This document shows, piece after piece, positions 10,916 to 13,479 of a stretch of DNA of 27,592 bases. Source of the stretch: a virus (lineage: Duplodnaviria; Heunggongvirae; Uroviricota; Caudoviricetes); IMG/VR virus record IMGVR_UViG_2522572164_000008. One strand, written 5' to 3'. The stretch's first letter is position 1; the number at the start of each line of letters is the position of its first letter. Both the position numbers and the translations under genes were made by a program. A model generated the notes under the pieces. The model saw only the letters and a program-made list of their open reading frames with translations. It was not told the origin of the DNA and did not search any database.

Positions 10916-11820
10916 CTATAGCGTTGTTTTACGCCTTAAATTTGATTTTTTATTGATTGATAAGCCTTTCTCTATTTCAGGGTAGCGTAAAAGCTCAATA
11001 TATTTTTTAAGCTCTATTGGAGAAGCTGCATTTTTGCTATATGTGCGGAATGTTTCTGTATTGCCGCGTGTATGGCCCAGGAGAAGGGCGATCCTGTCTT
11101 CTGGAATTTGATTTCGATCAAGAAGCTGTGCTACTCCGTGTCTCAGAGAATGAAACACTTTCCTTTCTGTTCCCTTTTCCCCTAAAGCCTTTCGTTTAGC
11201 TCTTGTAAATCGTTGTGTATGCCACGTAGAGCGTTTACCGTCAGCACGTTCTGTAATGCTGGCGTGATAGAACAAAAAGCCATTGTGAGGCTTTTCACGC
11301 AGCGACAACACCAACGGAGTGATAAGGTTATGCACAGGCACAACACGTGCCGCAGCTTTCGTCTTTCCCTGTGTGATTTCAAAACACAGCACACCTTCGA
11401 TCTCTTTCACATCGTCTATTGTGAGACTTGCTATCTCATTGATCCGCATACCTGTATATAAACCGATAAGACACAAAGCCGTCATTTCTTTGTTTTCTGC
11501 TGAATTACCGGAAAATACTTGCAACACCTGCAATAGCTCTTTGTTAGAAAATGCCTCGTAGCTCTCTCTACTTTGTGCCACATCAAGCCTATGCCCTCGC
11601 CAGGGGGAGAGCGCCCTTTCTGGCGCATCGTGGTAACGTGATGAAGCTAATTCCCATAGCTGGGCCATTGGACTGATATAATTTGCAATTGATTGTTGTG
11701 AAAGAGTTTTTTGCATGTGTTCAATCCAGCCTGTAACAGTGGTGCGGCTTACATCTTGCAATGCAATATCAGGCTTTTTACGGTAGGAGAGAAACATCTC
11801 TACCGCTTTTCTTGCCTTAG
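10916..11820 (-). pseudogene. Tyrosine integrase, C-terminal catalytic fragment (separated from its N-terminus by IS5)
   Basis: Contains H-x-x-R (FHSLRHG), LLGH and a C-terminal Tyr (RTYSK) typical of tyrosine recombinases. The first 23 codons of the ORF-track protein are read from inside IS5. Confidence 0.8.
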
Positions 11821-13015
11821 GGAAGGTGCGAACAAGTTCCTGATATGAGATCATCATATTCATCCGGAGCGCATCCCAGAGGGACATCATGAGCCATCAA
11901 CTCACCTTCGCCGATAGTGAATTCAGCACTAAGCGCCGTCAGACCCGAAAAGAGATTTTCCTCTCCCGCATGGAGCAGATTCTGCCATGGCAGAATATGA
12001 CCGCTGTCATCGAGCCGTTTTATCCCAAGGCGGGCAATGGCCGACGGCCCTATCCGCTGGAGACCATGCTGCGTATTCACTGCATGCAGCATTGGTACAA
12101 CCTGAGCGACGGTGCCATGGAAGATGCCCTGTACGAAATCGCCTCCATGCGCCTGTTTGCCCGATTATCCCTGGATAGCGCCCTGCCGGATCGCACCACC
12201 ATCATGAATTTCCGCCACCTGCTCGAGCAGCATCAACTGGCCCGTCAATTGTTCAAGACCATCAATCGCTGGCTGGCCGAAGCAGGCGTCATGATGACCC
12301 AAGGCACTTTGGTGGATGCCACCATCATTGAGGCACCCAGCTCTACCAAGAACAAAGAGCAGCAACGCGATCCGGAGATGCATCAGACCAAGAAAGGCAA
12401 TCAGTGGCACTTTGGCATGAAGGCCCACATTGGTGTCGATGCCAAGAGTGGCCTGACCCACAGCCTAGTCACCACCGCGGCCAACGAGCATGACCTCAAT
12501 CAGTTGGGTAATCTGCTTCATGGAGAGGAGCAATTTGTCTCAGCCGATGCCGGCTACCAAGGAGCGCCACAGCGCGAGGAGCTGGCCGAGGTGGATGTGG
12601 ACTGGCTGATCGCCGAGCGTCCCGGCAAGGTAAAAACCTTGAAGCAGCATCCGCGCAAGAACAAAACGGCCATCAACATCGAATACATGAAAGCCAGCAT
12701 CCGTGCCAAGGTAGAGCACCCGTTTCGCATCATCAAGCGGCAGTTCGGCTTCGTGAAAGCCAGATACAAGGGGCTGCTGAAAAACGATAACCAACTGGCG
12801 ATGTTATTCACCCTGGCCAACCTGTTTCGGGTGGACCAAATGATACGTCAGTGGGAGAGATCTCACTAAAAACTGGGGATAACGCCTTAAATGGCGAAGA
12901 AACGGTCTAAATAGGCTGATTCAAGGCATTTACGGGAGAAAAAATCGGCTCAAACATGAAGAAATGAAATGACTGAGTCAGCCGAGAAGAATTTCCCCGC
13001 TTATTCGCACCTTCC
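11821..13015 (+). mobile_element. IS5 insertion sequence, complete (1195 bp)
   Basis: Terminal inverted repeats GGAAGGTGCGAACAAG (11821-11836) and reverse complement of CTTATTCGCACCTTCC (13000-13015); flanked by a direct 4-bp TTAG duplication (11817-11820 and 13016-13019). Confidence 0.95.
11889..12869 (+). CDS. insH: IS5 transposase (DDE, 326 aa)
   Basis: Protein reads [12 protein letters not shown]...QWERSH, recalled as matching the E. coli IS5 InsH transposase; lies inside the IS5 ends. Confidence 0.95.
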
Positions 13016-13479
13016 TTAGCTAAAGTGGCTGGCTTCTTCTTCGTGCTGTTAATTGTCAGGTAGATTTCAAGAATTTTAAGCAATGACGGACACGAAGACG
13101 CTGTATCTTGCACTCTGGTAGCTGTTTTGGCGTATTTAGCCTTACTGCGTAACAGTTCCAGCGTGTTTTCTATTGTGCTGTTTACAGGGGCAACACTCTC
13201 CCGTAAGCAATGGTATTCATCTGCAATCTGATCACGCTTTCTACGTGCAACACGAAGATTACTTGTGTGTAGACTTCTGACAAACGTCCTTTTTCCTTCA
13301 AAAAAGGGCTGCATATACACAGGCAGCGTGATCCTTAAATAGTAGTTACCGTAAGAATCACAGATTAAGTATTGGTTAGGCTTGTATCTCATAAAATCTC
13401 CGGCTAAAGTGTCGGAGCGTTTGTAATGTGAAAATTGATTGTGACGCATAGAAAATGATGATTTTTCTATAAGATTCAA
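13016..13479 (-). pseudogene. Tyrosine integrase, N-terminal fragment (continues at 11820-10916 across IS5)
   Basis: N-terminal integrase-like segment (YYLRITLP...GKRTFVRSL). The ORF-track protein then reads through into IS5 (about 36 aa of IS-derived sequence). Frame arithmetic shows the two fragments are in frame once IS5 and one TTAG copy are removed. Confidence 0.8.

Follow-up and report, generated by a model that had tools for sequence, protein, structure and literature searches.

An IS5-type insertion sequence splits the tyrosine integrase gene of a thrW-associated island in O104:H4-like Escherichia coli

Introduction

Has a single, recent transposition broken the tyrosine integrase gene of an island integrated at a tRNA gene, and has the island lost its mobility with it? 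The locus that raises this question lies in the IMG/VR virus record IMGVR_UViG_2522572164_000008 (Duplodnaviria; Heunggongvirae; Uroviricota; Caudoviricetes), a stretch of 27,592 nucleotides that we refer to as the window. An earlier annotation, made from the letters and their open reading frames (ORFs) and called here the sequence-only reading, had described a complete IS5 insertion sequence (IS) inside the integrase gene at 10916-13479. It had further proposed that excision of the IS would restore an intact frame, that the insertion is recent and the only lesion, and that the element to the left has probably been immobilised. We compared this locus with E. coli chromosomes and plasmids, with deposited phages and with protein domain collections. 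The best explanation as a whole, in which we place high confidence, is that an isoform of IS5, putatively of the ISKpn26 type, transposed into a TTAG at codon 126 of the 425 codons of the integrase gene of an island at thrW, referred to as E1. A second island, E2, follows it on the right.

Results

A complete IS5-family element separates two parts of one gene

The split gene and its insert consist of the following features, given by their positions in the window.

10916..11820, minus strand: C-terminal fragment of the integrase, with the remaining core-binding domain and the whole catalytic domain
10916..11890, minus strand: mechanical fusion ORF of 324 amino acids (aa), with 24 IS-encoded residues in frame with the C-terminal fragment; its expression is putative
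11817..11820: left copy of the target-site duplication TTAG; the uninterrupted allele has a single TTAG
11821..13015, plus strand: complete IS5-family insertion sequence of 1195 bp, in RefSeq 'IS5-like element ISKpn26 family'
11821..11836: left terminal inverted repeat, GGAAGGTGCGAACAAG, equal to the right repeat at 15 of 16 positions
11889..12869, plus strand: intact IS transposase gene, 326 aa, with Pfam and NCBIfam profile matches
13000..13015: right terminal inverted repeat, in reverse complement GGAAGGTGCGAATAAG
13016..13019: right copy of the target-site duplication TTAG, directly outside the IS end
13016..13392, minus strand: N-terminal fragment of the integrase (codons 1-125 and two bases of Lys126), with DUF6538 and the start of the SAM-like core-binding domain

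Judged by its sequence, the inserted element agrees with the IS5 family in every structural respect, namely size, terminal repeats, 4-bp duplication and a single DDE transposase. The transposase matches the Pfam domains DDE_Tnp_1 (PF01609; E 4.5e-35, 121.7 bits against a cut-off of 23) and DUF772 (PF05598), and it passes the NCBIfam IS5-family equivalog NF033581 with 366.8 bits (cut-off 140). The GC content of the IS is 53.5%, against 42-44% in the integrase fragments on either side, and TTAG fits YTAR, the target motif of IS5 (PMC5009759). The terminal inverted repeats had been given as 16 bp long; they are present at this length, but they agree at 15 of 16 positions and are therefore imperfect.

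Deletion in silico of 11821-13019, which joins 10916-11820 to 13020-13479, leaves 1365 nt in a single open frame with 454 codons from 13479, and the reconstructed junction reads ...KKKPATLAKARKAVEMFL... The open frame of about 454 aa and its reading across the junction had been predicted and hold true, but the likely protein is shorter, with 425 aa from the ATG at 13392. This codon has a GGAG 5 nt upstream, is the RefSeq start of the intact 425-aa gene product and places DUF6538 from about residue 9, whereas neither TTG 13479 nor ATG 13449 has a comparable ribosome-binding site upstream. TTG 13479 was rejected as the start in favour of ATG 13392 on three grounds: the missing ribosome-binding site, the 425 aa of RefSeq and the domain boundaries. 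From the preferred start, the reconstructed coding sequence is 1278 nt long and does not differ at a single base from the annotated, uninterrupted integrase gene (WP_001269640.1) of 2011C-3493, MS1718 and 503025, three genomes fetched for this comparison.

A search with the 1000-bp reconstructed empty site as query found 472 E. coli records, 157 of them at ≥99%. In 30 of the 30 matches listed, which are E. coli complete genomes and include 2011 O104:H4 outbreak strains and 2011C-3493, the site is 100% identical over its full length, and the matches listed are annotated as one intact 'tyrosine-type recombinase/integrase'. What interrupts this tyrosine integrase gene is a complete IS5-family element, flanked by a true 4-bp duplication, and removing it recreates the exact ancestral empty site carried by other genomes. 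The central claim of the sequence-only reading is borne out at the two points where it might have failed: at the junction, intact homologues agree with the reconstruction in frame and length, and only one TTAG stands at the uninterrupted site, as expected for a true duplication. Identity to the intact allele further means that the IS is the only lesion in the gene, as had been supposed.

The IS interrupts the Lys126 codon, which belongs to the SAM-like core-binding domain (residues 104-183 by Pfam). The reconstructed protein consists of DUF6538, the SAM-like core-binding domain and a Phage_integrase domain (PF00589, residues 218-388; 64.6 bits, cut-off 27.1). The catalytic residues R248, K276/K278, H348, R351, H374 and Y385 are all present, and alignment to the XerC-like structure 4a8e preserves the positions of R, HxxR, H and Y. 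By these features the reconstructed protein classes as a tyrosine site-specific recombinase/integrase. All of its catalytic residues lie on the C-terminal side of the cut, which separates them from the N-terminal DUF6538 and early core-binding region. Since the gene is split, the window encodes no full-length form of this integrase. Translation of the N-terminal fragment would continue over 36 codons of the IS to 12907, for a product of 161 aa; in strain 1070/13, RefSeq names the same fragment 'DUF6538 domain-containing protein, incomplete'. The 324-aa fusion ORF was reported by gene callers in a draft assembly.

The insertion allele is rare and its flanks are undiverged

The stretch left of the IS (11,820 bp) has 0 mismatches to O104:H4 2011C-3493. 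In the 14.5 kb to its right, two differences from that genome occur, a substitution and a 1-bp indel, each within E2. The IS is likewise the only lesion in the 11.8 kb of E1 that the window contains. The IS itself is identical at 1195 of 1195 positions to copies on the ~75-kb pAA plasmids of O104:H4; each plasmid has three matching places. Most copies on plasmids are more distant, at 95-99% identity, and the 100% matches are those on O104:H4 pAA plasmids. Because the IS is identical to the pAA copies, one of these is a plausible donor.

Among 5426 complete E. coli genomes, the IS junction was found in strain 1070/13 and its pAA-minus derivative only. Exact-protein look-ups placed it in at least two other assemblies: GCA_000320045.1, of which scaffold KB021517.1 is 100% identical to the window over 12.5 kb, and GCA_030200825.1, in which both IS junctions lie at contig ends. 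The proposed recent date is upheld by the lack of divergence in the flanks, by the identity of the IS to the pAA copies and by the confinement of the junction, among the complete genomes, to one strain and its derivative. In RefSeq the identical allele is already recorded, as an IS5-like transposase with a pseudogene fragment on either side; a literature search on strain 1070/13 found nothing.

The same integrase has been struck elsewhere. IS600 (IS3 family) splits it at two other positions, in strain 02E060 and in 2013C_3997 / 2011C_3361 (2113-4657 and 4001-6545 of the regions fetched from these strains), and these independent insertions make IS hits on the gene recurrent. YTAR occurs 14 times in the gene. 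In E. coli, IS5 is more active than any other IS (PMC5009759): mutation-accumulation lines followed for ~2.2 million generations yielded 758 insertions, 361 of them by IS5A, and a single excision, of an IS3, among 857 IS events. The proposal that excision would restore the gene is formally true, but precise IS excision is very rare.

The split integrase is the last gene of an island bounded by copies of the thrW 3' end

The limits of E1 are defined by two features.

1..13553: portion of E1 that the window contains; from end to end E1 measures ~12.96 kb and extends from thrW to the att repeat, and its first ~600 bp lie outside the window
13535..13553, plus strand: 19-bp copy of the thrW 3' end, ACTCCTATTATCGGCACCA, which is the right att repeat of E1 and the left att repeat of E2

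The other 19-bp copy lies inside thrW, ~600 bp left of the window start. From the right att repeat it is 143 bp back to the start of the split integrase and 166 bp on to the P4-type integrase gene of E2. In 2011C-3493, proBA and tRNA-Thr (thrW) are followed by a ~13-kb block that has the same integrase, on the minus strand, as its last gene, and then by a plus-strand P4-type integrase. Because the thrW 3' end recurs at 13535-13553, between both integrases, the split integrase is the last gene of E1. The sequence-only reading had correctly looked for the affected element to the left: its right-hand att repeat lies just past the integrase start. By sequence, E1 has the features of a tRNA-integrated island, with direct repeats of the tRNA 3' end and an integrase adjoining one of them.

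Scanning of 3 kb for promoters gave one sigma-70-like site, against 4.3 expected by chance, outside the IS, and is uninformative. This sole site (TTGAGT-16-TAGAAT, 13553-13580, minus strand) lies beside the att core, points towards the split integrase and is probably meaningless.

The arrangement of islands at thrW varies among the genomes compared.

55989: E1 absent; E2 directly at thrW
503025: E1 alone at thrW
O104:H4 2011C-3493 and the window: E1, then E2
MS1718 and 1070/13: other islands at thrW come first, with E1 downstream

Strain 1070/13 lacks E2 and has a CP4-6-like island with intF to the left of E1; this strain and the window part in sequence at 13555, beside the att repeat. Blocks of ~14 kb and ~15 kb near thrW have been described as variably present among O104:H4 isolates (Grad et al. 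2013; PMC3551546). On this comparison E1 is a discrete module bounded by att repeats, which relatives of O104:H4 either carry as a unit or lack, and about 9% of complete E. coli genomes carry it.

At ~17926 of the region fetched from 1070/13, the right E1 att core is without one G (TATCGCACCA vs TATCGGCACCA). The missing base could be a second excision lesion or a sequencing error; the core in the window is intact.

E1 carries phage-related genes but no recognisable full phage gene set

The recognisable genes of E1, besides the integrase, are the following.

719-1270, minus strand: serine DNA invertase
3275-3943: replication-initiator-like helix-turn-helix (HTH) protein
6854-7885: capsid-like 343-aa protein (weak match)
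8269-10110: tape-measure-like 613-aa protein, homologue of Phi92 gp134 (E 1.5e-22)
10158-10835: Dit-like tube initiator, homologue of Phi92 gp135 (E 7e-54)

In the search for a phage relative of E1, only the Dit-like protein matched, with ~53% identity to proteins of virulent myoviruses of ~145-150 kb (Phapecoctavirus and Justusliebigvirus types). A search of the small ORFs of E1 against PHROG for an excisionase or regulators gave no matches, nor did an NCBIfam search of its structural proteins; tblastn of deposited phages with the 343-aa protein found no close relative. By its recognisable gene content E1 is phage-derived yet not a self-sufficient prophage, as it lacks a complete functional gene set. 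No temperate phage related to E1 is on record among deposited phages.

An E1 variant with the same integrase and gene order has a 342-aa RefSeq 'major capsid protein' (13-1041 of the region fetched) in the position of the 343-aa protein. The two are merely 19% identical, which marks the island family as modular.

Two stretches of E1 are gene-free by annotation, 1271-2944 (~1.7 kb) and 5264-6253 (~1 kb). In the region beside the invertase (719-2944), a search for an invertible segment returned weak inverted repeats only, and none could be defined. A search for arm-type sites gave one 10-mer, TTACAAACGC, that the two arms of E1 share in inverted orientation; ~0.16 such matches are expected by chance.

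The neighbouring island E2 retains its integrase

E2 fills the window from 13554 to 27592 and begins with an intact integrase gene.

13720..14934, plus strand: P4-type integrase of E2, intact, with the Pfam domains Arm-DNA-bind_3, Phage_int_M and Phage_integrase

In addition to this P4-like integrase, E2 encodes an AlpA-type HTH protein, an AntA/B antirepressor, an Icd-like protein and a DUF927 primase-helicase-like protein, followed by ProQ/FinO and PerC proteins and, at the far end, an AAA_21/AAA_15 ATPase. In gene content it looks like a P4-type satellite. In 55989 the ATPase of E2 is followed by a DUF4435 protein, and the pair may be anti-phage cargo.

At 23911 the window has an extra A in an A run (7 vs 6 in O104:H4 2011C-3493), and a hypothetical protein of 380 aa is thereby broken into two ORFs, 23120-23923 and 23940-24263. 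It is either a slippage frameshift or a homopolymer sequencing error.

Discussion

Consequences of the insertion for E1 and E2

Under the preferred explanation, an IS copy like those on the pAA plasmid of O104:H4-lineage E. coli would have transposed into the TTAG of the E1 integrase gene, and no full-length integrase would be made from it thereafter. Lacking that protein, E1 should be unable to catalyse its own excision or re-integration and would be locked at thrW unless an integrase were supplied in trans. Reversion by IS excision would be formally possible and very unlikely. E2 keeps its intact P4-type integrase and the shared att core, and so should stay independently mobile. Conservation of the integrase, together with the behaviour of E1 as a unit at the att repeat, suggests that the integrase was probably functional and E1 mobile before the insertion. 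Because E1 is present or absent as a unit, it is reasonable to infer that the IS removed its ability to excise itself, the sense in which it had been called immobilised.

Several points weigh against this account. The evidence that E1 excises is indirect, namely its att-bounded presence or absence in related strains and the purifying selection on its integrase. Terminase, portal, lysis and excisionase genes were not recognised in E1, and an island without recognisable terminase, portal and lysis genes would already have needed something else for transfer between cells. An IS-internal ATG in frame with the C-terminal fragment gives the 324-aa fusion with the whole catalytic domain, which makes residual activity conceivable. 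Finally, the allele is common to strains with different thrW arrays, so that 'recent' is a relative term: given the absence of E2 and the CP4-6-like island in 1070/13, the allele would have outlived at least two site-specific changes of its neighbours, unless the same site was struck twice.

Alternative explanations

The first alternative, unlikely yet with evidence in its favour, holds that the insertion was neutral: E1 would already have been a dead remnant, its integrase dispensable and the element immobile before the IS arrived. The fragmentary phage gene set and the two gene-free stretches agree with such a remnant, as do the failure to find excisionase, terminase, portal and lysis genes and the 57 of 474 carrier genomes without a full-length integrase. 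However, the other 417 carriers (~88%) retain the full-length 1278-nt gene at 94.8-100% identity, and pairwise ratios of nonsynonymous to synonymous substitution rates (dN/dS) among four intact alleles are 0.05-0.13, which speaks for selection on a working protein. On these sequence measures the intact alleles are under purifying selection, and a working gene is present in the population. A dead remnant would also sit poorly with an exact att-bounded unit that is present or absent in close relatives and occupies varied places in thrW arrays.

Quite improbable, in our view, is that inactivation was selected, the host benefiting from a locked E1 or from the removal of integrase activity at a crowded thrW array. 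The gene has been hit independently at least three times, by the IS5-type element here and by IS600 at two other positions, which lends this idea some appeal, but most carriers are intact, the gene is under purifying selection and no phenotype is known. The gene offers 14 YTAR sites, and with IS5 more active in E. coli than any other IS, a non-essential gene can be expected to take a neutral hit now and then.

We regard it as highly improbable that the split gene yields active or interfering products, that is, a 324-aa fusion with the catalytic domain and/or a 161-aa fragment that may bind arm sites. Both ORFs are in frame, and the N-terminal fragment retains its native start and ribosome-binding site. 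Against this, the promoter scan placed no promoter-like site pointing out of the left end of the IS, the fusion is without DUF6538 and ~20 core-binding residues, and RefSeq treats both pieces as pseudogene fragments.

That the IS copy was misplaced in assembly is practically negligible as an explanation: IS repeats often confuse assemblers, and the contigs of GCA_030200825.1 do break inside this IS, but the duplication is a perfect 4 bp at a YTAR site, and identical junctions in independent assemblies (the complete genome of 1070/13 and its derivative, KB021517.1 and the contig ends of GCA_030200825.1) argue against an artefact.

Significance of the insertion

The insertion is an ordinary IS5-family gene knock-out in O104:H4-like E. 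coli; it is not novel, the allele being already annotated. It is a textbook case of decay, through an IS, in the mobility gene of a mobile element. Within the O104:H4-related lineage, in which plausible donor copies of the IS lie on the pAA virulence plasmid, it serves as a clean and datable marker allele. Of the two tandem islands at thrW, it probably fixes one in place while the neighbour is still mobile. The more interesting subject is the nature, function and transfer of E1 itself, rather than the insertion.

A rather doubtful possibility is that E1 is an undescribed phage satellite or phage-interference island, for which the IS5-type and IS600 hits would be repeated natural 'locking'. The features behind it are an integrase under purifying selection, rep-like and capsid-like proteins and the homologues of gp134 and gp135. 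A literature search for a described satellite of the E1 type found nothing relevant.

Comparison with known systems

The element closest at hand is IS5A of K-12, with its transposase gene insH1. Like the window IS, it is 1195 bp long, with 16-bp repeats that have the same single mismatch and a 4-bp duplication at YTAR, and it encodes a single 326-aa DDE transposase; identity is 94.5% at the nucleotide level over the full length and 98.2% at the amino acid level. The window IS departs from IS5A by 64 substitutions and by two 1-bp indels that offset each other, changes concentrated in the first 500 bp; its transposase differs from InsH1 at 6 of 326 residues, and its RefSeq name is 'ISKpn26 family'. 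Under the ISfinder convention, isoforms share >90% nucleotide and/or >95% amino acid identity. By this convention the window IS would be an isoform of IS5, and 'IS5' is acceptable as a family or isoform label; the name given in the sequence-only reading is sound in that sense but does not denote an element identical to IS5 of K-12.

ISKpn26 is an IS5-family IS of plasmids and chromosomes of Klebsiella and other enterobacteria; it makes 4-bp duplications and knocks out genes such as acrR (PMC8023600). RefSeq puts the identical transposase (WP_000019440.1) in the ISKpn26 family, and at positions 173-185 the window IS has the bases given as the ISKpn26 reference state (PMC8023600). Unlike the published 1196 bp of ISKpn26, the window IS has 1195 bp, in a comparison made with the published description.

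The reconstructed integrase shares its domain order and the R-K-H-R-H-Y residues with other DUF6538 tyrosine integrases. The nearest solved structures are archaeal XerA and XerC-like proteins (E about 1e-3 to 1e-4), and among these comparisons no characterised DUF6538 member was identified. A tblastn search of 50,697 deposited phage genomes found no close relative of the integrase, the best match having 28% identity over 67% of the protein.

The thrW locus of O157:H7 Sakai provides the nearest parallel for the array as a whole. We considered E1 as Sakai Sp1 or Sp2 and rejected both: they share the tRNA with E1 but are other elements, one lambda-like and one P4-like. Sakai resembles the window in having tandem islands at thrW with their own integrases, some of them inactivated, such as the pseudogenised intD of Sp1; copies of the E1 integrase split by IS600 are further examples. 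The two loci differ in that the Sakai islands are unrelated elements, whereas the integrase of E1 has taken an IS5-type hit at codon 126 and has no other decay.

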